Part shown: positions 390-44,836 of the stretch, piece after piece
How the letters are laid out: every line of letters starts with the position of its first letter
Numbering within the stretch: position 1 is the first letter of the stretch
Virus record (IMG/VR): IMGVR_UViG_3300048999_000191
DNA length: 64,000 bases
Source: a virus
Reading direction: 5' to 3' (one strand)
The notes under the pieces: model-generated
What the model was told of the DNA's origin: nothing
The model's database searches: none
Seen by the model: only the letters and a program-made list of their open reading frames with translations
Program-made: the position numbers and the translations under genes

Positions 390-446
390 CCTCCAGTGCG
401 GTCTCGGTAATGACCCCACACTACTCGATCGGGTAGTGTGGGGCAA
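390..446 (-). promoter_or_regulatory. Cassette element copy 1
   Basis: TTGCCC-17-TAGTGT; palindrome 421-436 extended to 414-444; leader CCGCACTGGAGG. Confidence 0.85.
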
Positions 447-451
447 CCCCC

Positions 452-667
452 TTACAGCGGATTGCCCCAGACGATCCGGCCGGTGTCCCGGCGGTAGGGG
501 CGATGCTTCGGCTGCGGCGCGCTCGGGGCGTAGTCCGGGTCGTTCAGCTGGCGGATCTTGCGATCCACGGTGACCGGGTTGGTGTAGACGGCCTGCTCGG
601 TCGGATGGCCCGAGGCGTCGCAGGGCGTTCCCTCGGCGTCCAGGATCCGGTAGACGACGCTGCTCAC
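452..667 (-). CDS. hypothetical protein
   Basis: 71-aa ORF coupled to upstream gene. Confidence 0.55.
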   Translation of the reverse strand: MSSVVYRILDAEGTPCDASGHPTEQAVYTNPVTVDRKIRQLNDPDYAPSAPQPKHRPYRRDTGRIVWGNPL

Positions 668-1188
668 AGCTCGACCTCGGCCTTCGGCGGCATCCAGCCC
701 GCCTCGACGAGCAGCTTGCGGATCTCCATCGCCTGGTCCTTCATGCCGCCCGCCTCGAAGCCGACCTGAGAGACGATGTAGTCGACGATCGGCCGCGCGT
801 CCTCCTCGAACGGGATGACGTCGACCGGCGCCATCTCCTGGGCGATCAGCTCGGAAGCGTCTTCGAGCTTCGGCGCCTCGTCGGCGTCGAACGAGGTGCC
901 GCCGCCGGTGACCTCGGCCCCCTCGACCTTCGCCGCGATCTCGTCGGCCACGGCGTAGATCTCGGTCAGCTCGTTGTAGACGAAGTTCGTCTTGTGCGCG
1001 ATGACCGAGGTATAGGTCTTCTCGGGGACGTAGGGTTCGAAGTCGTCGCCGTAGCTGAACGGCACGCCCTTCTCGTAGTGGAAGACATCCTTCTCGCGGT
1101 CGACGGTCCAGCCCGCCTTCTCGCAGAGGGCGATCAGCTCGGTGGCCGCGTCGCGGGTGGGAACACTGAAGTCGATGTCACGGATCAC
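664..1188 (-). CDS. hypothetical acidic protein
   Basis: GTG start at 1188 behind element copy 2; typical codon usage. Confidence 0.7.
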   Translation of the reverse strand: MIRDIDFSVPTRDAATELIALCEKAGWTVDREKDVFHYEKGVPFSYGDDFEPYVPEKTYTSVIAHKTNFVYNELTEIYAVADEIAAKVEGAEVTGGGTSFDADEAPKLEDASELIAQEMAPVDVIPFEEDARPIVDYIVSQVGFEAGGMKDQAMEIRKLLVEAGWMPPKAEVEL

Positions 1189-1195
1189 AGGGATT

Positions 1196-1251
1196 CCTTC
1201 CGATGCAGGATGTTGCGAGTCGACACTACCCGATCGAGTAGTGCAGGTCAA
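1196..1251 (-). promoter_or_regulatory. Cassette element copy 2
   Basis: TTGACC-17-TAGTGT; palindrome 1226-1241; variant leader CCTGCATCGGAAGG. Confidence 0.8.
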
Positions 1252-1647
1252 ACGCGGCGGCGCGGGTGCACACGCTCCTTGCGCTCGATGAAGTAGCGGG
1301 TCTTGACCTCCACGGCGGCGATGCTCGCGTGCTTGCGGGACAGGCCGCCCGCCATCAGATCCTGGACCAGCTGCTCGTACTGGTCCTCGACGGTCGGATG
1401 GGACGCGTTGGTGCCCGCGCACGAGCACCGGGTGCCGCAGAGCATGAGCGCGCAAGTGGCCATCAGCGGACCCTCACTTCCTGCATCACCGAGTTGTCCG
1501 GCGTGAAATGCGTCTCGACGTAGGTCACTCGAACGAGCGAGTAGACCCCGTACACGGTGATCAGCGCTCCCTCGCGTATCGCGGGTGCGGTGCCACTCCA
1601 CACCACGGTGTCGGGGTCGTTCTCGTGAGCGATCTTGGTGTGGATCA

Positions 1648-1851
1648 TCACGAGCCCCAGACCGGGCAGAAGTACAACGAGCCGTCCGGCCGGTCACACA
1701 CCGGCTTCCAGCTCTGCTGGACGATCACCTCGTGCGCCCAGGGCCAGATGTCGGTCCCGGCCACGAGCAGGAAGCCGAGAAGAAACGCGATCGCGGCCAG
1801 GATGCCGAGCAGGCGCCAGCAGCCGTGACCGACCGGGGGGCGGGTGGCCAT
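1648..1851 (-). CDS. small membrane protein
   Basis: Hydrophobic segment LLGILAAIAFLLGFLLVAG; ATG at 1851. Confidence 0.55.
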   Translation of the reverse strand: MATRPPVGHGCWRLLGILAAIAFLLGFLLVAGTDIWPWAHEVIVQQSWKPVCDRPDGSLYFCPVWGS

Positions 1852-2138
1852 CAGATCATTCCTCCCGGCCCACGGCGGTCGCACTCCAGCCGGACGGCCA
1901 TGCGCAGCTTGTCCAGCTCCTCGGCGCCCAGCGAGCGCAGGTCCGGATCCGGGTTCTCGATGTGGACCACGAAGCCCTTGTAGGCGGGCGCCTTGGGCCA
2001 CTCGGCCTCGAACCCCTTACGCTCGACGATCGCGGCGCAGGCGGCCAACCAGGACGACGAGCGTCGCTTCCCGGCTGTCCTGGTGAAGTCGGCCGCGCGA
2101 TTCAACGCGGCAACGCCGCCTCGGATGAACTCACTCAT
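1851..2138 (-). CDS. hypothetical protein
   Basis: 95-aa ORF with GAGGAG RBS. Confidence 0.6.
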   Translation of the reverse strand: MSEFIRGGVAALNRAADFTRTAGKRRSSSWLAACAAIVERKGFEAEWPKAPAYKGFVVHIENPDPDLRSLGAEELDKLRMAVRLECDRRGPGGMI

Positions 2139-2251
2139 CAGATCTCTCCTCGCTGATCACGGACGACTGCGCAGCGTTTCTTACGCCTGGAGGTAACAAA
2201 CGCTGCGTCAGCCGATGTGCGGAGTGGCCAAAGGTAGAACCCTTGCCAGTC

Positions 2252-2281
2252 GACACTACCCGATCGAGTAGTATGGGTCAA
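2252..2281 (-). promoter_or_regulatory. Cassette element copy 3
   Basis: TTGACC-17-TAGTGT; palindrome 2256-2271; long structured leader instead of the standard one. Confidence 0.8.
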
Positions 2282-3681: not shown

Positions 3682-3683
3682 GA

Positions 3684-4004
3684 TCAGCTCTCCCCGCCGT
3701 AGATGACGACCAGCGACGACTCGTCACGGACCTCGTAGACGAAGCCCTGTTCGGCGGCCAGCGACTGACCCGCCTCGCTCAGGGTGTACTTCAGCGGCCA
3801 GCAGTCCATGGCGTACCAGACGACCTCGACGCGGCCCTTGGGCAGCTGCGCGACCTCGTGGCCGTTCGAGTTGAACTCGCGGACGTTGACGTCGAAGTGC
3901 TTCGCGGCGTCGATGGCCACGGTGGCGGCCACGGCGGCTTCGAGCGAGGTCCCCACCCCGCACCACGCCGGGCCGAGGATGTAGCTGGACGAGTGGGCTC
4001 CCAT
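3684..4004 (-). CDS. hypothetical protein
   Basis: ATG at 4004 behind conserved leader. Confidence 0.7.
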   Translation of the reverse strand: MGAHSSSYILGPAWCGVGTSLEAAVAATVAIDAAKHFDVNVREFNSNGHEVAQLPKGRVEVVWYAMDCWPLKYTLSEAGQSLAAEQGFVYEVRDESSLVVIYGGES

Positions 4005-4009
4005 GTTGA

Positions 4010-4070
4010 CCTCCGGTGCGGTCCTTGAACTGACAAAACCCACACTACCCGTTCAGGTAGTATGAGTCAA
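4010..4070 (-). promoter_or_regulatory. Cassette element copy 4
   Basis: TTGACT-17-TAGTGT; palindrome 4045-4060; CCGCACCGGAGG. Confidence 0.88.
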
Positions 4071-7112: not shown

Positions 7113-7508
7113 CTACCGGCCCATCAGTGCATCGGCGGAACGGCGGGAGACAGCCAGCTCGGCCTCGCGGACCCGCTGGCGGCTCTTGATCTCCTGGCTC
7201 TCGCGATAGGCCAGCTCGGCCAGCGCCATCTCGCCGTAGCCGTGGAAGTCGATCTCGGCGACTCGCCAGAGCATCTGGTCCAGGGAGCGGCTGAAGTCGC
7301 GCACCGGTGCTCCCAGCACATCGATCACGCGGACCAGGACGTTGGCCACGCGCTCGCCCTCGGCGGTGAGCAGGGTGACCGGGACCAGGGTGTCGACGCC
7401 CAGGCCGTTGAGGTTCGGGCGCTGCACCAGCCAGCCAGTGATCTGCTCGCGCAGGCCGTAGGCCTTGTACTTCTCGCCGGTGACGAGCTTCGGGGCGATG
7501 TGGGTCAT
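7113..7508 (-). CDS. hypothetical protein
   Basis: Starts behind element copy 5. Confidence 0.7.
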   Translation of the reverse strand: MTHIAPKLVTGEKYKAYGLREQITGWLVQRPNLNGLGVDTLVPVTLLTAEGERVANVLVRVIDVLGAPVRDFSRSLDQMLWRVAEIDFHGYGEMALAELAYRESQEIKSRQRVREAELAVSRRSADALMGR

Positions 7509-7513
7509 GGGAG

Positions 7514-7574
7514 CCTCCGGTGCGGCTGGTTGCGCTGACTCCCTGATACTACCCGAACGGGTAGTATCTGTCTA
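7514..7574 (-). promoter_or_regulatory. Cassette element copy 5
   Basis: TAGACA-17-TAGTAT; palindrome 7549-7564 extended GATA/TATC; CCGCACCGGAGG. Confidence 0.85.
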
Positions 7575-7859
7575 CCCGCGCCGGGCGCGCCACTTCGCCA
7601 GCAGGTCGGCGCCCTTCGAGGTGACCCGCAGTCGGCGGCGACCCTGGTGCCCGACCATGATGTGCTCGCCGTGCACGATGGCCTCGGCCGCGAGCAGCAG
7701 CAGCACGGGATGCCGGTCCTCCGGCCTGTGGACGAACACCTCGCGGCGGATGTAGCTGACGCCCAGGCCGCCCGGATTAAAGGAATGCAGATCGCCGTTC
7801 TCGGCTGCGGTGAGCGTCTCCTGACGCTCGGGCGTCCATGCGATCTCGCGGTCGCTCAT
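7572..7859 (-). CDS. hypothetical protein, possible winged helix
   Basis: Behind element copy 6; LRVTSKGADLL wing-like motif. Confidence 0.65.
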   Translation of the reverse strand: MSDREIAWTPERQETLTAAENGDLHSFNPGGLGVSYIRREVFVHRPEDRHPVLLLLAAEAIVHGEHIMVGHQGRRRLRVTSKGADLLAKWRARRG

Positions 7860-7864
7860 CCTGA

Positions 7865-7932
7865 CCTCCAGTGTGGTCCTGCATGTGCAGATGGATGAGC
7901 ATCAAGCTACCCGAACGGGTAGATCGGCTCAA
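7865..7932 (-). promoter_or_regulatory. Cassette element copy 6
   Basis: TTGAGC-17-TAGCTT; palindrome 7907-7922; CCACACTGGAGG. Confidence 0.8.
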
Positions 7933-8356: not shown

Positions 8357-8645
8357 GTGATCTCCTACTCGTCGTCTTCGTCCGTGGCCAGCGTGCGCAT
8401 CGCCTCGCCGTACCACTCCCAGTTGTCCACGCCCGCCTGCTCCAGGGCGTTGAGCTTGTCCTGGTCCTCGATCAGGCGCTTGTACCTATTGCGGCCGACC
8501 ACCTTGCCCCGGGACAGGTAATCGGCGATCCGGCGCAGGTCCTGCTGCACCTCGTCGCTGGAGCCGCTACGCGCCGCGTCCTGCTTGTCGAACCAGTCGG
8601 CCAGGAAGCGCAGCTTGCTCGCGTCGTCGTCGTAGACGGCCGTGC

Positions 8646-9026
8646 TCACGCGGGCGCCGTCTCCTGGAACAGTTCGCAGACGCCGCCCTTGTTCAGGTCC
8701 TGCTCGATGCGGCCGCCGAAGTCGGTGGGCGCGGGCCAGTCCGGCACCCGCAGCACGCCGGTGACCTTGTGGTCGCTGGCCATGTAGCCGCCCTCCTCCT
8801 CGTCGGCCTGCTCGATCAGGACGTCCACGTAGGACTCGTCCTTGGCGTGGTCGATCGAGTCGAGCACGAAGGGAGAGCCGGGCTCCCCGTCGCGGTAGAG
8901 CGCCGCGAGCGCGTCCAGCGCGACGTGCAGGCGCAGCAGCGCGTCCTCGTTGCCGTCGACCTGGAGCCAGAAGCGCCAGGTCTCGCCTTCCCACTCGTTC
9001 TCCTCGGTGAGCTTCACGAACTTCAT
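8646..9026 (-). CDS. hypothetical protein, paralogue of 8051-8356
   Basis: Shares FWLQVDGNExAL and G.L.VP.W. Confidence 0.75.
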   Translation of the reverse strand: MKFVKLTEENEWEGETWRFWLQVDGNEDALLRLHVALDALAALYRDGEPGSPFVLDSIDHAKDESYVDVLIEQADEEEGGYMASDHKVTGVLRVPDWPAPTDFGGRIEQDLNKGGVCELFQETAPA

Positions 9027-10624: not shown

Positions 10625-11430
10625 GCCAGCTTGAAGTGGTCGTCGGTCAGCTCGGTCAGGCCCTTGAGCGCGAGGACCTTGATCTTCTTCCCCTCGCGCT
10701 TAGCGTTCCAGGCCTTGGCCCCGGCGGCCAGGAACGGCTTCACCGGCTTCTCGCCGCCCTTCTGCGCGGAGCGGATGATCAACGCCCGCAGGGCCAGCTC
10801 GGGGTCCCCAGCGTGTAGCCCCTCGCCGTTGCGCACGCCCTCCCAGAACTCCAGGGCCGTGGCCGCGTCGATCCGGAAGGTGAGGAAGTACAGGCAGCCG
10901 AAGGCGGCCGGGAGGGCGCCGATCTCGTTGCGCAGGCCCATGCCGTAGCGCACGGCCTGGCCCATTGCGTCGCGGTTCTGGATGACGTAGTCGACGATCT
11001 CGGCGTCGGTGGGCTTGTAGACCTCACCCCGGACCTCTTCGACCTCCCACAGCAGCACAAGCCGGGTGACGGCCTGGGCCGACTTCGCCGACGGGATGCC
11101 GTGGCCCATGGTCAGCTCGTCGGAGGCAGACCGGCGCCGGTTCTTGTCCATCTTGAACCGGTCTTCGCGAGCGATGTTCTCGACGATGATGAATTCGAGC
11201 GTCACGCCCGCATCGATCAGCGCGCTCAGCCGGTGCTGGCCGTCGATCAGGTGGCCCTCGGTGTCGAACTTGATCGTCTCGCCGATGTTGGGGAACTGGC
11301 CGTTGCGCATGTCGCGGGCGAGCTTGCTAACCCAGGTCGGCGAGATCTTCCGGTTCTCGTTGTTCGTCGCCAGCCACTTCTTCGCCAGCTGGGGCGTCAC
11401 CGGGATCTTGCGGTGCTTGATATCGCTCAA
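10621..11430 (-). CDS. ParB-like (DGQHR) domain protein
   Basis: VTP..A...L..N..NR.IS, IKFD..G.LIDGQHRL.A. Confidence 0.8.
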   Translation of the reverse strand: MSDIKHRKIPVTPQLAKKWLATNNENRKISPTWVSKLARDMRNGQFPNIGETIKFDTEGHLIDGQHRLSALIDAGVTLEFIIVENIAREDRFKMDKNRRRSASDELTMGHGIPSAKSAQAVTRLVLLWEVEEVRGEVYKPTDAEIVDYVIQNRDAMGQAVRYGMGLRNEIGALPAAFGCLYFLTFRIDAATALEFWEGVRNGEGLHAGDPELALRALIIRSAQKGGEKPVKPFLAAGAKAWNAKREGKKIKVLALKGLTELTDDHFKLA

Positions 11431-11446
11431 GACGGGGTCTCCATTC

Positions 11447-11498
11447 CCTCCGGTGCGGGGTACCCGATCAGACTACCCGATCAGGTAGGTTCTGACCA
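11447..11498 (-). promoter_or_regulatory. Cassette element copy 7 with extra tandem half site
   Basis: TGGTCA-17-TAGTCT; palindrome 11473-11488 plus duplicate TACCCGATCA at 11461-11470; CCGCACCGGAGG. Confidence 0.78.
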
Positions 11499-12910: not shown

Positions 12911-13212
12911 CAGCGAGAGCAGCGCGGGTCGGCGAGCTTGACCAGCGTGACGGTGGAGGTCAGGCCGCCGCCGTTCTGGCCACCGGCGGTGTCCGAGCCT
13001 CGCGAGGTGACGGCGAGCGAGTCGCCTGCGGTGTTGCAGAACTCGATGACGTTGCGGAAGCCGTCCGGCAGCTGGTAGGCGCCGACGATCTTCGGCGGCT
13101 TGACGTTGGCCGGGAGCGGGTCCGGACCGGACTGCTGGGACAGACCGGCGCAGCCACTCAGGGCGAACAACGCGCCGATGGCGCTGGCGCCGATGGCGAT
13201 CTTCTTGTTCAT
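12910..13212 (-). CDS. putative lipoprotein
   Basis: MNKK + hydrophobic stretch + LSGC lipobox; behind element copy 8. Confidence 0.75.
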   Translation of the reverse strand: MNKKIAIGASAIGALFALSGCAGLSQQSGPDPLPANVKPPKIVGAYQLPDGFRNVIEFCNTAGDSLAVTSRGSDTAGGQNGGGLTSTVTLVKLADPRCSR

Positions 13213-13220
13213 GGGGTGCT

Positions 13221-13280
13221 CCTCCGATGCGGGGCAGGTAGATATGGGTAGACCCTACCCGAGTGGGTAGGGTCGGTCAA
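13221..13280 (-). promoter_or_regulatory. Cassette element copy 8
   Basis: TTGACC-17-TAGGGT; palindrome 13255-13270; CCGCATCGGAGG. Confidence 0.85.
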
Positions 13281-16118: not shown

Positions 16119-16538
16119 TCAGATCTCCTCGGGGGTGTAGGTGACCTGGTAGGTCTTCTGGTCGTAGTCGCTGGTGCCGATGTGCACCCAGGTGCGCGCC
16201 GGGATGTGCTGTTCCGTGCGGCCGTTGACCAGGTACTTCGGCGAGTCGGTCCAGACGGCGTAGCGCTTGTCCCCGCTCGGCGAGGCCACGATCATGCCCG
16301 GGAAGGCCAGCAGGCCACCCTGCACGCGCAGCGCGGTCAGATACGGGTCGCCGTCCTTGGCCAGCTGGATGCTGCGCTGGTTGACGTACATGTGCGCCTC
16401 ATCGGCCAGCGCCAGGGCCTGGGCTTTGTTCTCGGCCGAGATGTAGTAGCCACCCTGGGAGAAGCGCAGGCCGAACATGGTGCCGATCACGTGGGGCAAC
16501 GGGTCGTTGCTCTCGCGGGAGCGAAAGATCTTGGTCAT
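16119..16538 (-). CDS. hypothetical protein
   Basis: Behind element copy 9. Confidence 0.75.
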   Translation of the reverse strand: MTKIFRSRESNDPLPHVIGTMFGLRFSQGGYYISAENKAQALALADEAHMYVNQRSIQLAKDGDPYLTALRVQGGLLAFPGMIVASPSGDKRYAVWTDSPKYLVNGRTEQHIPARTWVHIGTSDYDQKTYQVTYTPEEI

Positions 16539-16543
16539 TGCGA

Positions 16544-16603
16544 CCTCCGGTGCGGTCTCGAACTGATACGCCCACCCTACCTGAATGGGTAGGGTGGGCG
16601 CAA
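16544..16603 (-). promoter_or_regulatory. Cassette element copy 9
   Basis: TTGCGC-N-TAGGGT; palindrome 16577-16592 extended to 16569-16600; CCGCACCGGAGG. Confidence 0.85.
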
Positions 16604-16821: not shown

Positions 16822-17055
16822 TCAGGCGTCGATGCGCAGGTGCTTGTTGGCGGCGTCGTGGGCCGGGCCCACCGGGATCTCGATCTGGGCGCCGTAGTCG
16901 TAGTGCTCGCCGGGGTCGATGACCATCATGATCACGATCGCCGCACCCTGCTCCTGCACGACCTCCTGCACCTCGAAGCAGGCGTGCAACTCGACGTCGA
17001 TGACGCTGTGGCCCACCAGGTCGGCGGTGGCGGTCTCGGCGGTGAGCATCTGCAT
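16822..17055 (-). CDS. hypothetical protein
   Basis: Behind element copy 10. Confidence 0.65.
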   Translation of the reverse strand: MQMLTAETATADLVGHSVIDVELHACFEVQEVVQEQGAAIVIMMVIDPGEHYDYGAQIEIPVGPAHDAANKHLRIDA

Positions 17056-17060
17056 CTTGG

Positions 17061-17120
17061 CCTCCGGTGCGGCTTGGCTGGTGATACCTGAACCCTACCC
17101 GTTCGGGTAGTGTGCGTCAA
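17061..17120 (-). promoter_or_regulatory. Cassette element copy 10
   Basis: TTGACG-17-TAGGGT; palindrome 17095-17110; CCGCACCGGAGG. Confidence 0.87.
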
Positions 17121-17627: not shown

Positions 17628-18179
17628 TCAGGCGTTCAGGTCGGCCAGCATCGCCCGGCCGAGGTCGGTCAGGATGACCTGCTGGTAGGTGTGCGTGGTG
17701 GCGTGGACGTTGGCCGGGCGGACGTCGAGCGTGACGGCCTTGAGGTTCGTCAGCTTGCGCAGGGCCTCGCGACGCTCCGTCGAGATCGTGATGGGCATGC
17801 GGCCGATCACCTCGTAGAAGCTGTCCGCCAGCGCGCCGGTGCGATGCACCGTGGTGGTCGCCACCACCGAGCGCAGCGCCCAGGCGAACTCGTAGCTGTT
17901 GCGCTCGCTGATGTGGTTCAGGATGTCCTGGGCCTTGGCCTCGGCGTCGAGCGCGTCAACGACCTCGTCGGCGTCCACGCCGTGCTCGTCGAGCAGCTCG
18001 CGGGCGGTGAGCGAAACGAGCTTCGCGTACTTGAGCACCTCGGCGTGGCCCGACCCGAGAGCGGAGACCAGCTCCTCCAGCTTGTTGCGCTGGACGCGAT
18101 AGAGATTGATCAGGTCCTGCGCGTCCTCGCTCAGCTCGGCGGTCTCGGGCGTGGTGTCGGTGTCGAAGTCGTTCAGCAT
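17628..18179 (-). CDS. hypothetical protein with possible C-terminal winged helix
   Basis: ATG at 18179 behind element copy 11; ends VILTDLGRAML. Confidence 0.7.
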   Translation of the reverse strand: MLNDFDTDTTPETAELSEDAQDLINLYRVQRNKLEELVSALGSGHAEVLKYAKLVSLTARELLDEHGVDADEVVDALDAEAKAQDILNHISERNSYEFAWALRSVVATTTVHRTGALADSFYEVIGRMPITISTERREALRKLTNLKAVTLDVRPANVHATTHTYQQVILTDLGRAMLADLNA

Positions 18180-18184
18180 CTTGG

Positions 18185-18245
18185 CCTCCGGTGCGGCGTT
18201 CAGCGGGTATGACACGACCCTACCCGTTTGGGTAGGGTCGGTCAA
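18185..18245 (-). promoter_or_regulatory. Cassette element copy 11
   Basis: TTGACC-17-TAGGGT; palindrome 18220-18235; CCGCACCGGAGG. Confidence 0.87.
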
Positions 18246-18947: not shown

Positions 18948-19277
18948 TCAGATTCCCATCTCCGCGCGAAGCGCGGCAGTCTGGCGGCTGTAGACGTTGG
19001 CGTAAGCCGTCTGGAGCTGGTAGCGGGCGTTGTCGGCGCTCACCGGGCCGAAGTCGACGAACTCCTGAACGATCTGCTTGGCGTCGCGCAGGGTGTCGGC
19101 GATGTCGGTGCTGGCGATGATCGGCTGACCGACCGCGTGCGTCACGTCCGCCGTGGTCTTCAGCTCACGGACGAGGATGTGCCAGCTCTTGCCGTCCTGG
19201 TAGATCGTGAACTGGTGCGTGTCGCTGCGGGCGAAGTAGGTGCCGGACCAGTCCTGGCGCTTGTAGGTGATCTCCAC
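18948..19277 (-). CDS. hypothetical protein
   Basis: GTG at 19277 behind element copy 12. Confidence 0.7.
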   Translation of the reverse strand: MEITYKRQDWSGTYFARSDTHQFTIYQDGKSWHILVRELKTTADVTHAVGQPIIASTDIADTLRDAKQIVQEFVDFGPVSADNARYQLQTAYANVYSRQTAALRAEMGI

Positions 19278-19282
19278 GACGA

Positions 19283-19344
19283 CCTCCGATGCGGTCTCTG
19301 TAACTGACAAGACCCACACTACCCGTTCAGGTAGTGTGGGTCAA
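19283..19344 (-). promoter_or_regulatory. Cassette element copy 12
   Basis: TTGACC-17-TAGTGT; palindrome 19319-19334; CCGCATCGGAGG. Confidence 0.88.
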
Positions 19345-19880: not shown

Positions 19881-20774
19881 CTACTTGACGGCGTACCACT
19901 CGCGGGCGGTCTTGCCCGCCGCCTTGCGGGCGGCCTCGTCCCGGCGAGCCGGGGCCAGCTTCTTGTCCGCCTTGGTGGCGATCTCGTCGAGCACCTCGGC
20001 CAGCGGGCGGTCTTGCTTGACCGCGATGGCCTTGATCAGCCGCTGCGCGTAGAGCCGCTCGCGCTTGGACATCTCGATCAGCTGCGCCGCGTGGCTCTCG
20101 GTCTCGGCCTGGTCGGCGTAGATGTCGTCGAGGCCGGACTGCTCCAGCGCGTCCACGGCCTTGATCTGCGCGGCGCGCAGGGTCTTGATCGTGTAGCCGT
20201 CGTCGTCCTTGAGCGGCGTGCCGTCCACGTCAGTGATGCCGTTCGCGGCGGCCTTGGCCTGCTTCACGGCGGCGGCGGTCTGGCGAGCCTCACGCTCGGC
20301 GATGCGAGCCGGGGTGTCCACGCGGGCGTCGCGCTTGGCCTGCATGACCTCGACGGGCAGATTCGGGAAGCAGCGGGCGCAGGCGTCCATCCCGGAGAGC
20401 GTGCCCATCTCGTCGTGGTCGGTGCCCGAGAACTGAGTCAACCAGCCGAAGTCGGTGTCGGCGAAGCAGGTGTCGCAACTGGTCGAGGTGTGCACGTGGC
20501 CGTTGCTGTTGAGGACCAGGTAGTAACGGTTCCAGCCGCCACGGCCTCGGTATTCGTCGTCCAGCTCGCCCAGCTCGGTGACCAGCAGCTCCATCTCGGC
20601 GTGGAAAGTCTTGATCTCGGCCTTGGCCTTGGCGATGGAGTCGTCGCTGTAGTTGCACTTCATCACATAGTCGGCACGCATCAGGCCGTGCTTGATCTCG
20701 CCCCGACGGATCATGATGGCGGCGATGCGGGTGTCGATCTCGGCGGGCGAAGCGGTGGCGAGGTTGGCGATCAT
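19881..20774 (-). CDS. actinophage-type Zn-binding protein
   Basis: GHVH...CDTC...CARCFP; behind element copy 13. Confidence 0.8.
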   Translation of the reverse strand: MIANLATASPAEIDTRIAAIMIRRGEIKHGLMRADYVMKCNYSDDSIAKAKAEIKTFHAEMELLVTELGELDDEYRGRGGWNRYYLVLNSNGHVHTSTSCDTCFADTDFGWLTQFSGTDHDEMGTLSGMDACARCFPNLPVEVMQAKRDARVDTPARIAEREARQTAAAVKQAKAAANGITDVDGTPLKDDDGYTIKTLRAAQIKAVDALEQSGLDDIYADQAETESHAAQLIEMSKRERLYAQRLIKAIAVKQDRPLAEVLDEIATKADKKLAPARRDEAARKAAGKTAREWYAVK

Positions 20775-20779
20775 CTGGG

Positions 20780-20843
20780 CCTCCGGTGCGGCTCATTCTT
20801 GCTGACAAGAACGACATTACCCTACCCATTCGGGTAGTGTCAA
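20780..20843 (-). promoter_or_regulatory. Cassette element copy 13 (class B)
   Basis: TTGACA-18-TAATGT; palindrome 20822-20837 fills the spacer; CCGCACCGGAGG. Confidence 0.87.
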
Positions 20844-22820: not shown

Positions 22821-22825
22821 CGTGG

Positions 22826-22890
22826 CCTCCGGTGCGGCTCGTTCCGTGCTGACAGGAAGAACTCTACACTACCCATCTGGGTAGTGTCCA
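22826..22890 (-). promoter_or_regulatory. Cassette element copy 14 (class B)
   Basis: TGGACA-18-TAGAGT; palindrome 22869-22884; CCGCACCGGAGG. Confidence 0.85.
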
Positions 22891-24265: not shown

Positions 24266-24270
24266 TGCGA

Positions 24271-24330
24271 CCTCCGGTGTGGTCCTTGACTGACAAGACC
24301 CACACTACCCGTTTAGGTAGTGTGGGTCAA
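24271..24330 (-). promoter_or_regulatory. Cassette element copy 15
   Basis: TTGACC-17-TAGTGT; palindrome 24305-24320; CCACACCGGAGG. Confidence 0.88.
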
Positions 24331-24340: not shown

Positions 24341-24712
24341 TCAGGCGTCCTGCGCGGCACGGTCCATGGCCTCGGCGAGCATCCGCTGGCGCGGCGCGTC
24401 GTCCCAGGTGTGCGGGCCGGTCAGGGCCTTGATCGCCGAGGCGATGGCGCCCTGGCCGTGCGTGTACGTGTCGTCCTGCATCAGCACGTCGCCCGCCGGG
24501 CCGCTGTCGGTGGCGGGACGGCCGCACACGAAGAACTGGGTCATGTGCATGTACTGGCCCTCGCCGGTGCGGGTGAAGCCCTCCTCGGTGACCGCGTACA
24601 GCTCGGTGCCGGGCACCTGGGCCTGCCAGTAGCGCAGCATCGTGTGCTCATCCGAGATGAAGCTGGGCTGCTCGGGGCTGGTCAGCTCGACGTGGTCCAG
24701 GGCGATGGCCAT
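24341..24712 (-). CDS. hypothetical protein
   Basis: Behind element copy 16. Confidence 0.7.
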   Translation of the reverse strand: MAIALDHVELTSPEQPSFISDEHTMLRYWQAQVPGTELYAVTEEGFTRTGEGQYMHMTQFFVCGRPATDSGPAGDVLMQDDTYTHGQGAIASAIKALTGPHTWDDAPRQRMLAEAMDRAAQDA

Positions 24713-24717
24713 CGGTT

Positions 24718-24769
24718 CCTCCGGTGTCGGTTGGTGATGACCTTATACTACCCGATCGGGTAGGGTCAA
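24718..24769 (-). promoter_or_regulatory. Cassette element copy 16 (class B)
   Basis: TTGACC-18-TAAGGT; perfect palindrome 24748-24763; CCGACACCGGAGG. Confidence 0.85.
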
Positions 24770-25020: not shown

Positions 25021-25959
25021 TCAGGCGGCCGTGGTGGCCTTGTCGTCCTCGGTCTCCTCCTTGGCCACGGCGCGGCCCAAAACCATGTCAGCGGCCTTCT
25101 GGGCCTTCCCGGCGGCCACGATGACCGCGCGCGGGTCCTCCTTGATCGTCTTGATCCAGGAGGCCAGGTAGGCGGCCGAGTTCTTCTGGGTGCTCTCGAT
25201 GCCGGTCTCGGCGCAGAGGAACGCGGCGCCCATCTCGGCGATCAGCTCCTCGCGGCCGTAGGCGTGGCTGCCGAAGGCGTTGTTGCGGCTCTCCGCGCGG
25301 TTCAGGCGGTGCTCGGCGGCGGTCGAGTGGGTCAGCTCGTGGAACAGCGTCGCGTGGTACTCGTCCAGGCCGTGGAAGCTCTCCTTCAGCGGCATGGTCA
25401 GCTCGTCGGTGGCCCAGGTGAAGTGCGCCGAGTCGCCGCCGTGCTTGATGACCGGCTTGGCCTCCCAGGCGTCCACCACGGCCTGCGCGGCCGCGTGGCG
25501 CTCCTCGGGGCTGGGGACCGGACGGGCCACCGGGAAGGCGTCCTTCGGCAGTTTCTCGATGCCCTCGGTCTGGTCCAGGTTGAACACGTAGAAGTGCTTG
25601 AGCAGCGGGATCATCTTCTTCTTGCCGGTCGCCTCGTCCTCGATCGGCAGCAGCTTCCAGAAGGTGACCAGGGTGCCCTTCTGCGAGCCCTTCTCGCCCT
25701 TCAGGTGACCGCCCAGCTTGGCCATCTGGTTGAAGGTCAACCAGTACGCGCTGCGGTAACCCTTCTCGGCCTGCTCCAGGCCCAGCAGGAAGGCGTTGAC
25801 GCCCCGGTAGGCCTTGCCCGAGGAGAGCGACTTCGGCGCGCCGGTGACGCTGTCCCACGGCTTGTTCCACGGCGCGGTGCCGTTCTCCAGCGCGGTCAGG
25901 ATCTTGGTGGTGACGACGTCGTAGACATCGACCTTGGGCTTGCGGGCGGTGGTGGCCAT
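25021..25959 (-). CDS. ardC: ArdC-family antirestriction ssDNA-binding protein (DUF1738 plus zincin domain)
   Basis: PWNKPW, YRGVN, WLTFNQ, LFHELTHST, YGREELIAE, SAAYLASW, AAGKAQKAAD. Confidence 0.92.
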   Translation of the reverse strand: MATTARKPKVDVYDVVTTKILTALENGTAPWNKPWDSVTGAPKSLSSGKAYRGVNAFLLGLEQAEKGYRSAYWLTFNQMAKLGGHLKGEKGSQKGTLVTFWKLLPIEDEATGKKKMIPLLKHFYVFNLDQTEGIEKLPKDAFPVARPVPSPEERHAAAQAVVDAWEAKPVIKHGGDSAHFTWATDELTMPLKESFHGLDEYHATLFHELTHSTAAEHRLNRAESRNNAFGSHAYGREELIAEMGAAFLCAETGIESTQKNSAAYLASWIKTIKEDPRAVIVAAGKAQKAADMVLGRAVAKEETEDDKATTAA

Positions 25960-25964
25960 GTTGT

Positions 25965-26030
25965 CCTCCGGTGCGGACGGTGTTCTTTGCTGACAAGAAG
26001 GACACTACCCGTTTAGGTAGTGTCCGTCAA
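25965..26030 (-). promoter_or_regulatory. Cassette element copy 17
   Basis: TTGACG-17-TAGTGT; palindrome 26005-26020; CCGCACCGGAGG; drives ardC. Confidence 0.88.
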
Positions 26031-26620: not shown

Positions 26621-26965
26621 TCAGTAGGTGATCGAGCCGCCGTCCATGCCGACCGGCATGACTCCGGCCTTGGCCAGCGCGCAGGCCTCGTCGGCGTCTT
26701 CGGCGTACTCCCAGCCCTCGTCGGCCCGGTTCTGCGCCCAGACGTGCTCGTGACCGGCTTCGCAGACGAACGCCCGGCCGTCGTCCCACGCCAGCGCGTC
26801 GCAGTTGAGGACGATCCGACCGCCGTCCTCGTCGGTCAGGTAACCCCAGCGGTCACGCGCGTAGGACTGCCAGCTGCACGGGCCAGCCTGCCCGGCGTAG
26901 CAGCGGCGGACCCCTTCGACGGTGAGATGGGTGCCCTTGCAGTTCCCGCAGGTGATGCTCGACAT
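26621..26965 (-). CDS. Cys/His-rich hypothetical protein
   Basis: CGNC..H...C, CEAGH; behind element copy 18. Confidence 0.7.
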   Translation of the reverse strand: MSSITCGNCKGTHLTVEGVRRCYAGQAGPCSWQSYARDRWGYLTDEDGGRIVLNCDALAWDDGRAFVCEAGHEHVWAQNRADEGWEYAEDADEACALAKAGVMPVGMDGGSITY

Positions 26966-26970
26966 TCTGG

Positions 26971-27037
26971 CCTCCGGTGCGGCGCTCGCTTCGTGCTGAC
27001 AAGAGGAACGCTACACTACCCATCCGGGTAGTGTCAA
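26971..27037 (-). promoter_or_regulatory. Cassette element copy 18 (class B)
   Basis: TTGACA-18-TAGCGT; palindrome 27016-27031; CCGCACCGGAGG. Confidence 0.87.
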
Positions 27038-27234: not shown

Positions 27235-27456
27235 TCAGACCTGCGTGGCGGCGGCGACGAGGATTGTGGGTGCTGTCGGGTGGGCGCGGAGAAGCCCCGC
27301 CATGATCCGGGCCTGGCTCTTGCCGCTGGACAGCGTGACCGTCCAGTCGCCGTGCTCGTCGCGGATGAAGATCATGTGTCGAATGTCCGAACGGGAGCTG
27401 GAGAGCGTGACTCGGCGTCCCAGGGAGTTCTTGGCGGTGTAGGCGATCTTCGACAT
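27235..27456 (-). CDS. hypothetical protein
   Basis: Behind element copy 19. Confidence 0.65.
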   Translation of the reverse strand: MSKIAYTAKNSLGRRVTLSSSRSDIRHMIFIRDEHGDWTVTLSSGKSQARIMAGLLRAHPTAPTILVAAATQV

Positions 27457-27461
27457 CTGGG

Positions 27462-27523
27462 CCTCCGGTGCGGCTCGGTGCTTGATGGGTTTAACGGTAC
27501 ACTACCCGAGTGGGTAGTGTCAA
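27462..27523 (-). promoter_or_regulatory. Cassette element copy 19 (class B)
   Basis: TTGACA-18-TACCGT; palindrome 27502-27517; CCGCACCGGAGG. Confidence 0.85.
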
Positions 27524-37420: not shown

Positions 37421-37816
37421 TCATTGGGCTTCCTTCCGGAAACGGGTGCGTTCGATCACTTCGTCGATCTCGTCGCGCAGTTCTTGAGGGAGCTGCGGGA
37501 AGGCCTTGTCCGAGGACTGCACGTCGCGCAACAGACCCATGGCCTGATAGCGCTCGGTGATGGCTTGCTGAGCCCGGTCGACCAGGTCGGCATCGCTGCC
37601 TCCGGCCGTCAGCTCGCGGCGGTCCATCGAGGTCATCAGCAGGCGCTCCAGCCGCGCCGATTCACGCTCGGCCTGCTTGGCCCGCCTCACGGCAGCCGCA
37701 GCCTTGCGGCGCCCGTCGAAAACCTTGGAAAGACCCTCCATCAGGCCCCCGCCGAAGAGCACGCCGAAGAGCACCATCCAGAAGATGTTGTCGTTCAGGA
37801 ATTGCCAGAAGGTCAT
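37421..37816 (-). CDS. membrane-anchored coiled-coil protein
   Basis: N-terminal TM segment; behind element copy 20. Confidence 0.7.
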   Translation of the reverse strand: MTFWQFLNDNIFWMVLFGVLFGGGLMEGLSKVFDGRRKAAAAVRRAKQAERESARLERLLMTSMDRRELTAGGSDADLVDRAQQAITERYQAMGLLRDVQSSDKAFPQLPQELRDEIDEVIERTRFRKEAQ

Positions 37817-37825
37817 GGCCTTCAT

Positions 37826-37882
37826 CCTCCAGTGCGGATGCGTTGTGGATGGGATACTACCCGATTGGGTAGGTGATCACAA
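37826..37882 (-). promoter_or_regulatory. Cassette element copy 20
   Basis: TTGTGA-17-TAGTAT; palindrome 37857-37872; CCGCACTGGAGG. Confidence 0.8.
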
Positions 37883-38264: not shown

Positions 38265-38516
38265 TCAGACGCAGGAGCGGGTGAGCTTGCGGCGCTCGTC
38301 GGGGGTCGTGCCGCCGAAGATGCCGTGGTCGAGACCCTCGTCCAGGGCGAAGCCCAGGCAGACCTCGCGGACGGGGCAGCGGGCGCAGACCGCCTTCGCC
38401 TGCGCGACCTGCCGCTCGCCTGGGCCGACCTCGGAGATCGGGAAAAACAGCTCAGGATCCTCGTCCTTGCACGCGGCGAAGTCGCTCCACGCGAACTGCT
38501 CGATGCGCTCGTTCAT
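38265..38516 (-). CDS. whiB: WhiB-family Fe-S transcription regulator
   Basis: AAC...DPELFFP...AKAVCARCPVREVCL...GIFGGTTPDER. Confidence 0.95.
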   Translation of the reverse strand: MNERIEQFAWSDFAACKDEDPELFFPISEVGPGERQVAQAKAVCARCPVREVCLGFALDEGLDHGIFGGTTPDERRKLTRSCV

Positions 38517-38758
38517 GATCGGCCTCCTCTCAGGCCTTGGTACGAAGTGAAACGGAATGGAATGCTCTGGAACAGCGGATTACCGCTGGACTTCGCCACG
38601 GTCGACGACCGCCGACATCGTGTTGAGTGCGTTCTGGGCCTCGTCGAGCAGGTCGGTCTTGCTCAGGTCCTGTCCCACCATGGCGGGGTCGAAGACGAAC
38701 TTCACCGGGACGGTGATCTCGTACAGGCCATGTTCGTTCTTCGGGGCGGTCATCGTGG

Positions 38759-38819
38759 CCTCCAGTGCGGCGTGGCCGGTGTACTGATCACAGTACCCGA
38801 ATGGGTAGGGTAGGCGCAA
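38759..38819 (-). promoter_or_regulatory. Cassette element copy 21
   Basis: TTGCGC-18-TACTGT; palindrome 38793-38808; CCGCACTGGAGG; two genes upstream of whiB. Confidence 0.8.
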
Positions 38820-39482: not shown

Positions 39483-39848
39483 CTATTGACGGTGCTTGAG
39501 AGGGCCAACGGACCGCTCGAAGGCATCCAGCACCGGCGCCGGGATCTTGCCCCGGCTGCTGACCCTCATCCCCTGCTGGGCGGCCCAGGCGCGGACGTCG
39601 GCCAGCTCGGCGCGCTTGGCCTGCGCCGGAGTCATGTCCCGGCGGGTCTCCACGTCGATCAGCGGCCGGGCCGCCGTGACGTACTCGATCAGCGCCGCGC
39701 GCAGGTCCTTCGCGTTGCGGTCGGAGAGGTCGATGACGTAGCTCGTGCCGTCGATGCCGAAGACGATCTCCTCGTCCGCCGCGACATCGAGGTTGCCGCG
39801 CTGGCGCTCCAGGTCGTCGACCCGGCGACGGATCACTTGTTCCGCCAT
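39483..39848 (-). CDS. lsr2: Lsr2 nucleoid-associated protein
   Basis: VDDL...FGIDG.SY.IDLS..NA..LR; VRAWA...G..VSSRGKIP. Confidence 0.93.
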   Translation of the reverse strand: MAEQVIRRRVDDLERQRGNLDVAADEEIVFGIDGTSYVIDLSDRNAKDLRAALIEYVTAARPLIDVETRRDMTPAQAKRAELADVRAWAAQQGMRVSSRGKIPAPVLDAFERSVGPLKHRQ

Positions 39849-39997: not shown

Positions 39998-40564
39998 TCA
40001 GAATTTGCTTGCGCAAACGGGGCCAATACCCCTGGCGCGGGACTCCTCGTTGGTCAGCGTCCGGTGGCAGACCCCGCAAACACCCAGCTCCTTGCCGTAC
40101 CGGATCGCGGCGGCCTTCGGGTCCTTTTCGATCTTGGCCAGCACGCTCTTGGCGGTCGGCCAGGGCAGCTTGTGCAGCTCGTCGGAGGCCTGGAGCGAGA
40201 CGGTGTAGAAGCCCTTGGGCGAGACCTCGACCTGGTAGAAGGCCAGGTGGCCTTCGTCGGTGTTGACGGCGTAGCTGCCGTCGATCACCTGGGGGCGCGG
40301 CGGGACGGGCTCGACGACCCGGGTGGCGATCGCGAGGTCGCGCAGGTGGCCACGCTCGATCTTGAGCAGGTCGATCTGAACGGAGGCGTGGGAGAAGGTG
40401 AGCAGGCCCGCGTCGTCGGCGACCCGCATCTGCTCCCACAGCTCGACGCCGCGCGAGCGGTTGTAGGCCGCGATCTGCGTGATCAGGTCCCGCAGGAACT
40501 TCAGCTGGCCCTCGGTGCGCTGGCGGGGCTGGTTGCGGGGGATGTTCGAGATCGTCGCGTTCAT
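39998..40564 (-). CDS. DUF6011-like Zn-finger protein
   Basis: CGVCHRTLT...SRARGIGPVC. Confidence 0.8.
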   Translation of the reverse strand: MNATISNIPRNQPRQRTEGQLKFLRDLITQIAAYNRSRGVELWEQMRVADDAGLLTFSHASVQIDLLKIERGHLRDLAIATRVVEPVPPRPQVIDGSYAVNTDEGHLAFYQVEVSPKGFYTVSLQASDELHKLPWPTAKSVLAKIEKDPKAAAIRYGKELGVCGVCHRTLTNEESRARGIGPVCASKF

Positions 40565-40569
40565 CTCTG

Positions 40570-40631
40570 CCTCCGGTGCGGCTCTCGTGCTGACGAGATG
40601 AACACTACCCGTTCGGGTAGGGTGACGTCAA
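40570..40631 (-). promoter_or_regulatory. Cassette element copy 22
   Basis: TTGACG-18-TAGTGT; palindrome 40605-40620; CCGCACCGGAGG. Confidence 0.87.
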
Positions 40632-43548: not shown

Positions 43549-43582
43549 AGAATCCTCCTCGGGTTCGCTCGTTGGGGAGCGA

Positions 43583-44191
43583 TCAGTCGCGGCTGAACAG
43601 CCAGATCAGCAGGACGGTGGCGCCCAGGGTGACCACGTTGGCGATCAAGCGCTGGCGGCGCTTGCGCTTCTCCTCGTCGGAGACGAACACGTCGAAGCGG
43701 ATGTCGGTCAGCTTCTCGTAGCGCGGCAGCACCATACGGTTCAGCGCGTGCCGGTAGGCCACCACGATGAAGGGCAGCGCGACCCAGATCCAGGGGATCA
43801 CGTCCGGCGCCAGCCCGAGCAGCATCAGCGAGAGGAAGGCGAACATGCCGGTGGCGTAGTGCACCCGCTTGACCGACGCTCGGCGGGCCTCACCGCGCCA
43901 GTTCGCGTGCATGACGCGCTCGTTCTCCCGGCGGACCAGGTCGATGTCGGGCATGCCATAGAGCCGGTCGTCGCGGGTGTCGCGGTACCAGTAGACGCCG
44001 TCGCTGACGTCGATCTGCACCAGGTACTTGCGGGCGTCGGACTCGCGCTGCGGGTAGCTCAGGGCCCAGACGTCCCAGGCCGGGCCGATCTGGTCGTCGT
44101 AGGTGACGTCGAACTCGACGTCCTCGGCCGGGGGCTGCTCGCGGTAGTCACGGCGGACCTCTTCCCAGCTCAGGGGCTCGAAGTCGGTCAT
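43583..44191 (-). CDS. membrane protein
   Basis: Three hydrophobic segments; behind element copy 23. Confidence 0.75.
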   Translation of the reverse strand: MTDFEPLSWEEVRRDYREQPPAEDVEFDVTYDDQIGPAWDVWALSYPQRESDARKYLVQIDVSDGVYWYRDTRDDRLYGMPDIDLVRRENERVMHANWRGEARRASVKRVHYATGMFAFLSLMLLGLAPDVIPWIWVALPFIVVAYRHALNRMVLPRYEKLTDIRFDVFVSDEEKRKRRQRLIANVVTLGATVLLIWLFSRD

Positions 44192-44196
44192 GGCAG

Positions 44197-44253
44197 CCTC
44201 CAGGTGGTGGACGGAACACCACTCATACTACCCAAATGGGTAGGGTAAGTCAA
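44197..44253 (-). promoter_or_regulatory. Cassette element copy 23
   Basis: TTGACT-17-TAGTAT; palindrome 44228-44243; variant leader CCACCACCTGGAGG. Confidence 0.82.
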
Positions 44254-44564
44254 CGAGGCATCCGGACACCGGCGCGCTGGTGCGTCCGCTCGAAGGCCGA
44301 CCGGCTCATCCCGAGCTTGGTGATGATCTCCATCCGCTTCAGGCCCTGCTCGGCAAGGAAGGCGGCATCTTCGATGACCTCGGCGGCGCGGCGGTAGACC
44401 CTCGGGTACTGGTCCAGCTGGCCGAAGTGCCGGGCGTGGGCGAAGCAGCGGCGGCAGAGGTGCCGGGACTTGTGCACGACGAAGCCCGGGGGCGGTCGAG
44501 TTTCGACCGTCCCCGGGACCATCGGCCAGTCGCACCTCTTGCAAGGCGGCAGGCTGGATTTCAC
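44250..44564 (-). CDS. Zn-finger plus HTH protein
   Basis: CKRC...H..CRRC; EIITKLGMSRSAFER. Confidence 0.65.
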   Translation of the reverse strand: MKSSLPPCKRCDWPMVPGTVETRPPPGFVVHKSRHLCRRCFAHARHFGQLDQYPRVYRRAAEVIEDAAFLAEQGLKRMEIITKLGMSRSAFERTHQRAGVRMPR

Positions 44565-44774
44565 TCGCTCGGCGCCTCGGCCTGGACCGCGTAGCGCTCG
44601 TCGAGTGCTTCCGCCACGAGGTCGAGCAGCTCCGCACGCTGAGCCGCACGGACGGAGCGACGGCTCTTGGCCTTCACCCCGGCCGGGGCCGAGGCCAGGC
44701 AGTCGATCTTGTAGTGGCAGCTGTGGCGAGCAACGCGGTCCCGGCGCGGGGTAACGGTGACGTCCATGACTTTG

Positions 44775-44836
44775 CCTCCAGTGCGGCGGTGTTCCTTGAC
44801 CTCTCTCACACTACCCAACCGGGTAGTGTGTGTCAA
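44775..44836 (-). promoter_or_regulatory. Cassette element copy 24
   Basis: TTGACA-17-TAGTGT; palindrome 44811-44826; CCGCACTGGAGG. Confidence 0.87.

Follow-up and report, generated by a model that had tools for sequence, protein, structure and literature searches.

A recurrent promoter unit with an embedded 22-bp dyad heads the accessory gene cassettes of an uncultured actinophage lineage and may form a co-regulated set

The stretch of viral DNA considered here (64,000 nucleotides of the IMG/VR record IMGVR_UViG_3300048999_000191, hereafter the window) has a G+C content of 67% and, according to a gene call based on codon-position G+C, carries about 120 genes, nearly all of them on the minus strand, with products that include a DnaE polymerase with an intein, a RecA-like protein and an FtsK/TraB-like ATPase. 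Between these genes lie copies of a palindrome, CTACCC-N4-GGGTAG, accompanied by promoter hexamers and a ribosome-binding leader, which the original prediction described as 24 co-oriented units heading an array of gene cassettes. Allowing at most one mismatch, the palindrome has exactly 24 matches in the window, each of them at the predicted position; dinucleotide-preserving shuffles average 0.04 matches and at most 1, so that the observation is confirmed far beyond chance. All 24 copies point the same way on the minus strand and every one is located between two genes; as predicted, the region assigned to a transfer module (27.6-37.8 kb) contains none, and none occurs past 44.9 kb of the window.

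Close relatives of the window were not found among cultured phages and plasmids, and a megablast search of 25 kb against phage and plasmid collections gave zero matches. In genome contigs, a 14-base pattern matched only unrelated single sites, and a metagenome scan gave one true fragment among 120; a pattern scan of IMG/VR led to two complete, terminally redundant relatives of 155,347 bp (G001) and 149,735 bp (G002). The window aligns in reverse to 52-117.6 kb of G001 with 72-96% identity and many gaps, and to G002 with 65-78% nucleotide identity limited to the structural and replication genes. The unit recurs in both, with 37 copies in G001 and about 25-30 in G002. A distant relative, NZ_CP041653.1 (pRLB1-9.1), is a 154-kb circular 'plasmid' of Streptomyces sp. 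RLB1-9 that has 42 syntenic proteins in common with G001, including a capsid protein of 73% identity, and that lacks both the dyad and the leader described below. This sharing of proteins places the lineage among phages that infect Streptomyces-like hosts and indicates that a relative is able to persist episomally.

An alignment of 62 copies from the window and G001, anchored on the palindrome, evidenced information at TTGAC (positions -10 to -6), AC[A/C] (-3 to -1), CTACCC (0-5), RWWY (6-9), GGGTAG (10-15) and [T/G]GT (16-18), and zero information at positions -40 to -12. As information is confined to those positions, the true element is a 22-bp dyad, AC[A/C]CTACCC-RWWY-GGGTAG[T/G]GT, with an A/T-rich centre; the core of the 16-bp palindrome originally reported is thus retained and its extent is corrected. 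Read along the minus strand, the unit consists of TTGAC, a few bases, the palindrome, [T/G]GT, often cttGTCAG, CCGCACCGGAGG and a start codon 4-8 nt further on. T18 is kept in 61 of the 62 copies and its dyad partner A-3 in 49, an excess that fits an additional role of T18 as the last T of a TANNNT -10. The proposal that these are principal-sigma-type promoters was supported by the observation that the strict pattern TTG[AC][CG]-N17-19-TANNNT occurs 20 times on the minus strand of the 64 kb, always in a unit, and not at all on the plus strand (about 1.9 expected), so that each consensus-like promoter in the window has a dyad; the other four units have a weaker -35.

The single promoter layout assumed at the outset applies to most copies and fails for five of them (20822, 22869, 24748, 27016 and 27502), which use another register. 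Counting the 81 units of the three genomes (window, G001 and G002), 68 belong to class I, in which the first base of the -35 is at -10 or -11 and TAG[T/G]GT, within the right arm of the dyad, is the -10, and 12 to class II, in which a TTGACA -35 at -6 to -1 abuts the dyad, another TANNNT hexamer begins at T18 and the invariant GGGTAG falls in the spacer. GTCAG follows the -10 by 7 nt (sometimes 6) in both classes, and the distance from the -35 to GTCAG is constant at 36-37 nt with the dyad displaced by 4-5 bp between the registers. This fixed distance supports the promoter call and a transcription start that is predicted to be the G of GTCAG; the displacement, in turn, shows that the dyad is an independent module of the core promoter and does not simply follow from the -10. 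The possibility of a divergent promoter on the opposite strand was considered and rejected, as CTGACA would there be 22 nt from the mirrored -10. The 24 units of the window are as follows (hexamers are given as -35, spacer length and -10).

Unit 1, 44765..44836, minus strand: class I, TTGACA-17-TAGTGT; palindrome 44811-44826; leader CCGCACTGGAGG; drives a 68-aa gene, then a gene for a 90-aa helix-turn-helix (HTH) protein.
Unit 2, 44189..44253, minus strand: class I, TTGACT-17-TAGTAT; palindrome 44228-44243; variant leader; drives a 202-aa gene and a GNAT fusion gene.
Unit 3, 40562..40631, minus strand: class I, TTGACG-18-TAGTGT; palindrome 40605-40620; GTCAG 7 nt past the -10; drives DUF6011, Lsr2 and RMF-like genes.
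Unit 4, 38751..38819, minus strand: class I, TTGCGC-18-TACTGT; palindrome 38793-38808 with 1 mismatch; WhiB cassette.
Unit 5, 37814..37882, minus strand: class I, TTGTGA-17-TAGTAT; palindrome 37857-37872; heads a long operon reaching down to about 32825.
Unit 6, 27454..27523, minus strand: class II, TTGACA abutting palindrome 27502-27517; -10 TACCGT from the last T of the palindrome.
Unit 7, 26963..27037, minus strand: class II, TTGACA-18-TAGCGT; palindrome 27016-27031; GTCAG 7 nt past the -10; drives a Cys-rich 114-aa gene.
Unit 8, 25957..26030, minus strand: class I, TTGACG-17-TAGTGT; palindrome 26005-26020; drives ArdC.
Unit 9, 24710..24769, minus strand: class II, TTGACC-18-TAAGGT; palindrome 24748-24763; variant leader.
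Unit 10, 24263..24330, minus strand: class I, with 8 extra paired bp (GACCCACA/TGTGGGTC); palindrome 24305-24320; hairpin of -28.6 kcal/mol.
Unit 11, 22818..22890, minus strand: class II, TGGACA-18-TAGAGT; palindrome 22869-22884; GTCAG 7 nt past the -10.
Unit 12, 20772..20843, minus strand: class II, TTGACA-18-TAATGT; palindrome 20822-20837; GTCAG 7 nt past the -10.
Unit 13, 19275..19344, minus strand: class I, extended arms; palindrome 19319-19334.
Unit 14, 18177..18245, minus strand: class I, TTGACC-17-TAGGGT; palindrome 18220-18235.
Unit 15, 17053..17120, minus strand: class I, TTGACG-17-TAGGGT; palindrome 17095-17110; the upstream open reading frame stops within the unit.
Unit 16, 16536..16603, minus strand: class I, extended arms (GCGCCCACC/GGTGGGCGT); palindrome 16577-16592; hairpin of -31.6 kcal/mol.
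Unit 17, 13210..13280, minus strand: class I, TTGACC-17-TAGGGT; palindrome 13255-13270.
Unit 18, 11428..11498, minus strand: class I, weak -35; palindrome 11473-11488 plus an extra downstream half-site, GATCGGGTAC; heads a nine-gene operon with a gp5.9-like gene.
Unit 19, 7857..7932, minus strand: class I, TTGAGC-17-TAGCTT; palindrome 7907-7922; leader variant CCACACTGGAGG.
Unit 20, 7506..7574, minus strand: class I, TAGACA-17-TAGTAT; palindrome 7549-7564; first gene located elsewhere in G001.
Unit 21, 4002..4070, minus strand: class I, TTGACT-17-TAGTGT; palindrome 4045-4060; GTCAG 7 nt past the -10.
Unit 22, 2136..2281, minus strand: class I promoter; palindrome 2256-2271; common leader and nearby start codon missing.
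Unit 23, 1186..1251, minus strand: class I, TTGACC-17-TAGTGT; palindrome 1226-1241; degenerate leader.
Unit 24, 382..446, minus strand: class I, TTGCCC-17-TAGTGT; palindrome 421-436; cassette located elsewhere in G001.

In unit 22 some 90-120 nt of structured non-coding DNA with a strong hairpin (cgcagcgttt...aaacgctgcg) precede the next gene, a similar hairpin is present at G001 116114-116183, and the stretch may encode a small RNA or an attenuator. Among the units of the relatives, one in the structural region (G001 39155-39170, reverse strand; G002 102648) points the opposite way and heads a gene for a 651-aa helicase, of which pRLB1-9.1 encodes a homologue. In both complete genomes, a tandem pair of dyads 17 bp apart precedes homologous operons for small Cys-rich proteins (G001 130886-130918, G002 18845-18877); apart from the promoter of the LuxR-type gene discussed below, these are the sole tandem dyads in G001 and G002. 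For the genes under the unit at 11473, the idea of ParB-like proteins was not supported: ParB_N is absent from G001 and G002, Pfam gave nothing and the sole PHROG match is to a family of unknown function.

The four central positions of the dyad are constrained symmetrically (R6/Y9, W7/W8), with no pairing or covariation, and the core pairs C3-C5/G10-G12 never vary together, including in class II, where they are not part of the -10. A symmetric, unpaired centre together with an unchanging core is what is predicted for the site of a dimeric protein and not for a loop, and explaining the invariant core requires a sequence-specific reader. Being symmetric over 22 bp, the dyad is not a stoperator of the L5 type, which is 13 bp long, asymmetric and orientation-dependent.

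The leader is a second conserved part of the unit. The sequence GCACCGGAGG, with at most one mismatch, is found 29-51 nt past the palindrome in 20 of the 24 units, in agreement with the original description of a leader in most copies; the copy at 2256 is devoid of it and those at 1226, 44228, 7907 and 24748 have variants. Outside the units it occurs at one further real gene start in the window (41794), and its near-absence from operon-internal genes indicates that it belongs to the 5' end of the transcript and is not a general feature of ribosome-binding sites. The gap between GGAGG and the start codon is mostly 5 nt. When 94 distinct copies were compared with shuffles, the bases around CC-GCACNGGA-GG were found to covary: the first ring (pair -1/12) is paired in 79 of the 94 copies against 41 after shuffling, with five pair types, and the second ring in 53 against 31. 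In most units the minimum-energy fold of the predicted leader has a stem of 3-5 bp and an 8-nt loop, a structure that splits the Shine-Dalgarno sequence between loop and stem. The form CCGCACCGGAGG (for example at 4008-4019 of the window) resembles CCGUACCGGAAGG, a sequence within helix 45, close to the 3' terminus of 16S rRNA in actinobacteria.

As to the protein that may read the dyad, a stand-alone gene of the GerE/LuxR HTH type, encoding 90 aa, is present at the far end of the regulon in both complete relatives (G001 142092-142364, G002 11810-12139), and these were the only viral contigs with the gene returned by the search. A large protein collection contained seven homologues, and in the five contigs retrieved for them, all from independent samples, the gene is surrounded by dyad units; six of the seven homologues have the same recognition helix, and that of the seventh is nearly identical. 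The gene co-occurs with the dyad in every relative examined, and it is absent from pRLB1-9.1, which also has zero palindromes. In every genome its own promoter contains a dyad with a degenerate left arm and an abutting extra GGGTA half-site, an arrangement that is not seen in any other unit. The closest solved structures are the DNA-binding domains of LiaR, VraR and NarL, and the half-site TACCC, invariant or nearly so in both arms, matches the inverted TACYYMT heptamer of NarL/LuxR operators. The NarL output domain binds as a dimer to TACCCCT-AA-AGGGGTA (TACCCCTAAAGGGGTA) and, if this site is located at the promoter, can by itself act as a repressor (PMC4549865). The two systems are therefore alike in having inverted TACCC-type half-sites and a GerE-type HTH, which in NarL dimerizes and can repress at a promoter as an isolated domain and which the phage candidate contains as a bare domain; they differ in half-site spacing, in the lack of a receiver domain in the phage protein and in that the operator role is here a prediction. 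The 90-aa LuxR/GerE-type protein is the best candidate for a repressor. Two other HTH proteins were discarded as regulators: for the 90-aa protein at 44250-44522 the recognition helix is not conserved in G002 and PHROGs assigns it to DNA-binding modules of HNH homing endonucleases, an assignment that also holds for the triple-HTH protein at 51593-52282.

The regulon starts straight after the terminase large subunit gene, which is located directly upstream of the first unit, and most of the cassette genes are of the kind anticipated, that is, without a recognizable family: about 14 of the roughly 99 accessory proteins scanned gave a Pfam match, the families being ArdC, T7 gp5.9-like, WhiB, Lsr2, RMF-like, YdjM, a metallophosphatase and several DUFs. 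The presence of ardC and whiB among them, already noticed in the original prediction, was verified. The main identified genes are:

45434-47407: terminase large subunit, 657 aa; PHROG match with E = 4e-10, no Pfam match.
38265..38516, minus strand: WhiB-family protein, in the cassette of unit 4.
39483..39848, minus strand: Lsr2-like nucleoid protein, in the cassette of unit 3.
25021..25959, minus strand: ArdC-type anti-restriction protein with ArdcN and zincin peptidase domains, first gene of unit 8.
8365..8649, minus strand: protein with a T7 gp5.9-like RecBCD inhibitor domain, in the operon of unit 18.

The terminase protein is 73% identical in G002 and 51% identical in pRLB1-9.1. Adjoining the Lsr2 gene, a gene for a 72-aa protein (39179-39397) with a weak match to RMF (E = 2e-5, below the Pfam cut-off) is kept in G001 and G002. 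The gp5.9-like RecBCD inhibitor adds weight to the anti-defence content of the cassettes, whose unknown genes may have such roles. Conversely, the label of an 'establishment' regulon, in the sense of expression after conjugation, found no specific support, the element being a terminally redundant phage genome with a terminase gene beside the first unit.

The cassettes also bear the marks of exchange. Most window genes are missing from G002, where the units are nevertheless kept, and of the 70 boundaries of homology blocks shared by the window and G001, 18 fall no farther than 60 nt from a unit, compared with about 4.5 expected and a maximum of 13 in 2000 trials. The cassettes at 53-451 and 7185-7526 of the window are located at non-syntenic sites in G001, and in orthologous units identity jumps at the -35. 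Altogether, this pattern is analogous to the modular exchange described for the promoter early stem-loop (PeSL) cassettes of T4-type phages; the analogy drawn originally holds in this respect and does not extend to the position of the stem-loop, which is here within the promoter. Since the units are near-identical over about 65-75 bp, it is proposed that they serve as recombination points at which orphan cassettes are gained, lost and moved. Mobile palindromes of the REP/RAYT type were also considered, and no transposase domain was detected among the window proteins scanned.

Taking these data together, we favour, with somewhat better than even confidence, a reading in which the units constitute a host-read promoter regulon with a built-in operator and a standard leader, and are also the recombination scaffold of a hyperplastic arm of the genome. 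Each unit would be a complete, standardised expression module of a phage of about 150 kb infecting mycelial actinomycetes. Host RNA polymerase carrying the principal sigma factor would recognise TTGAC(N) and TANNNT separated by 17-18 bp and initiate at the G of GTCAG, and the 22-bp dyad in the core promoter would be the operator of one dimeric DNA-binding protein, the likeliest binder being the phage's own 90-aa LuxR/GerE-type protein. Once bound, this regulator would exclude polymerase and so silence all 24 units (about 40 per genome) at once, either following the early phase or during a carrier state. In the transcript, the leader would fold into a 4-bp hairpin with GCACNGGA as its loop, presenting or half-burying the Shine-Dalgarno sequence, and so provide the same translation-initiation context for all first genes. 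Judging from the sequence, one regulator could probably switch all 24 units, and with them about a hundred small, mostly unknown genes, together.

Several observations weigh against this reading. The LuxR-type gene lies outside the 64-kb window; the G001 and G002 proteins are 42% identical and their recognition helices differ (VDNVKSHIRS vs MDAAKMNVKL) despite the same operator core; and the spacing of the half-sites, TACCC-N4-GGGTA, is not that of the 7-2-7 operators of NarL/LuxR proteins, being 2 bp shorter than the N6 of NarL. Furthermore, the dyad is lengthened by 7-9 perfect pairs in 21 of the 81 units, with several compensatory sequence types (GACCGACC/GGTCGGTC vs GACCGAGC/GCTCGGTC; GCGCCACC/GGTGGCGT vs GCACCACC/GGTGGTGT), the mean extension being 2.9 bp against 1.07 bp with shuffled partners, and C-to-T changes in the left arm (24) exceed G-to-A changes in the right arm (9), which fits tolerance of G-U pairs in a sense-strand hairpin. 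The extra compensatory pairs are not explained by a dimeric protein and point to selection for a hairpin or to template-switch mutation. They favour the alternative that the dyad is mainly a nucleic-acid hairpin, a very stable stem in transcripts reading through from the upstream cassette, that would terminate or attenuate transcription, be processed or protect the 3' end of the upstream mRNA, insulating the cassettes in the manner of the stem-loop of T4 PeSLs. Its sequence would then stay constant only since one of the arms is also the -10 and recombination homogenises the copies. RNA folds of the elements reach -18.5 to -31.6 kcal/mol (z-scores of -3 to -8), and upstream genes stop just before or inside the unit, where a separate terminator is not present, as this alternative would have it. 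It is, however, at odds with the lack of covariation in the core pairs and the symmetric constraint on unpaired loop positions, and with class II units, which are nearly devoid of the extension; a T-rich tail (by the rule of the scanner) follows only one unit in 11-28 kb, with weak TTGT tails behind extended stems, and the phage has distinct GC-rich terminator-like hairpins elsewhere. We regard the hairpin as an unlikely main function of the dyad; its role in read-through transcripts is a real, probably secondary property of a subset of units. A combination of both ideas, held tentatively and with more doubt than belief, is a three-layer standard in which the dyad would be at once the operator of a master repressor and an insulating RNA hairpin, and the leader hairpin a common translational operator, so that orphan genes captured between two units through homologous recombination would be transcribed, timed, insulated and translated alike.

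Other explanations dispense with a phage repressor. The units could chiefly be PeSL-like recombination scaffolds with an ordinary constitutive promoter, the dyad having no reader and being kept by concerted evolution, for which the enrichment of homology ends at units, the two relocated cassettes, the persistence of units between the widely different accessory genes of G001 and G002 and the PeSL precedent (PMC2839356, PMC4122927) can be invoked. This is improbable, given that positions flanking the core vary freely among copies, implying weak homogenisation, that the dyad is kept in two promoter registers and that its core persists in G002, where the core genes retain just 65-78% nucleotide identity. 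Still less probable is that a host protein reads the dyad, either a response regulator of the NarL/LuxR type or a CsoR-family repressor, tying early expression of the phage to a host signal. The identity of the dyad core across phages with diverged DNA-binding proteins of their own would be accounted for in this way, and CsoR operators in Streptomyces are TACCCC...GGGGTA dyads with TAC/GTA flanking G-tracts (PMC3902906). CsoR sites are nevertheless of the form TAC-X9-GTA with A/T-rich flanks (PMC3902906), one position off the X8 spacing of the dyad with its C/G flanks, and the CsoR family (PF02583) was not found in G001 or G002, on which grounds a CsoR-type reader was rejected; the special operator at the phage LuxR-type gene also favours a phage factor. 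The least probable of these possibilities is positive control, the dyad recruiting a phage activator or a special sigma factor and the units not being read by unmodified host polymerase. LuxR-type proteins are often activators, and GGGTA presumably resembles the -10 of SigB/SigF-type promoters, both of which would suit such control. Yet no activator is needed where a near-consensus -35 is followed by TANNNT at 17-18 bp, and a site within the spacer is placed for repression. About 18 nt separate the T-rich -35 from GGGTA, more than the 14-16 nt usual in SigB/F-type promoters, and a promoter of that type was rejected on this spacing and on the invariant T18.

The proposed operator-bearing regulon can be compared with several known systems. 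PeSLs of T4-type phages (PMC2839356, PMC4122927) are likewise repeated intergenic composites of about 70-100 bp, with a host-sigma consensus promoter, a stable stem-loop, a Shine-Dalgarno sequence and a start codon, and are concentrated in a hyperplastic region of small orphan genes with breakpoints and relocated cassettes at the units. In contrast to PeSLs, in which the stem-loop is upstream of the promoter, the stem-loop described here occupies the spacer and the -10; its sequence core is invariant, an A/T-rich element upstream is lacking, the phage infects a high-G+C actinomycete and the leader is itself a conserved, covarying hairpin. Dispersed-operator regulons include the stoperators of mycobacteriophage L5, the C1 operators of P1, the OB sites of KorB in RK2 and the CUP repeats of IncN plasmids, in which a short site is present in dozens of copies across many operons, as in the phages studied here, and one small DNA-binding protein globally silences or times accessory and anti-restriction genes. 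Stoperators and P1 C1 sites are asymmetric, many of them inside transcription units, and KorB sites are at variable distances from promoters, whereas each site in the present units is a symmetric dyad in the core promoter, in one of two fixed registers, and the repressor is a candidate only. The 17-bp dyad of Cluster O mycobacteriophages (PMC4351075) also occurs in more than 30 copies as an invariant short palindrome with a variable A/T-rich centre, its function being unknown; unlike the dyad described here, it is not part of promoters and is found genome-wide, in both orientations and in many cases within genes. Each ingredient thus has a precedent (PeSLs, stoperators, P1 C1 operators, KorB sites, Cluster O dyads); their combination is without one. 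In this uncultured actinophage lineage a core-promoter dyad that occurs in two registers is joined by a ribosome-binding-site hairpin with covariation and by a bare LuxR-type protein as candidate repressor, and a published description of such a combination was not found in the literature searched.

Some further features accompany the regulon. A perfect 19-bp palindrome, ACCCCGTAGGCTACGGGGT (29232-29250), is found in the divergent region between a plus-strand TraB/Spd-like operon and minus-strand genes; it is kept in G001 and is probably a separate operator for the transfer module. Inteins with LAGLIDADG domains split DnaE and a second protein (57058-61464 and 52925-55033 of the window), and scans of the window for Rfam families and tRNAs found nothing. 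The Streptomyces element pRLB1-9.1 encodes an HK97 capsid protein, baseplate J, DnaE, ParA, ParB and two tyrosine recombinases and looks, from its gene content, like a phage-plasmid or a carried phage genome; in the literature it is regarded as a readily lost plasmid (PMC11571958). Its most frequent 12-mer, CCCAGGAGCGCC, present in 10 copies, may be the conserved ribosome-binding leader of its own lineage.

If the reading of the units as a co-repressed regulon is true, about 40 operons with some 170 small genes of a 150-kb actinomycete phage would be under the control of one small repressor acting on one 22-bp site, and membership of the regulon would single out the early, host-takeover and anti-defence set of genes (ArdC, gp5.9-like, Lsr2, WhiB and RMF-like proteins together with about 85 orphans) with no need for functional annotation. 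The pairing of operator and regulator would be directly testable, and the units would supply the engineering of Streptomyces with a ready family of promoter and ribosome-binding-site parts that are graded and can be repressed together. The idea of regulatory cassettes that shuffle genes, developed for PeSLs, would then reach the phages of high-G+C Gram-positive bacteria and, if the three-layer standard were to hold, the units would amount to a platform for gene cassettes that works by recombination, in a phage in which an actinomycete DNA-transfer module is present as well.

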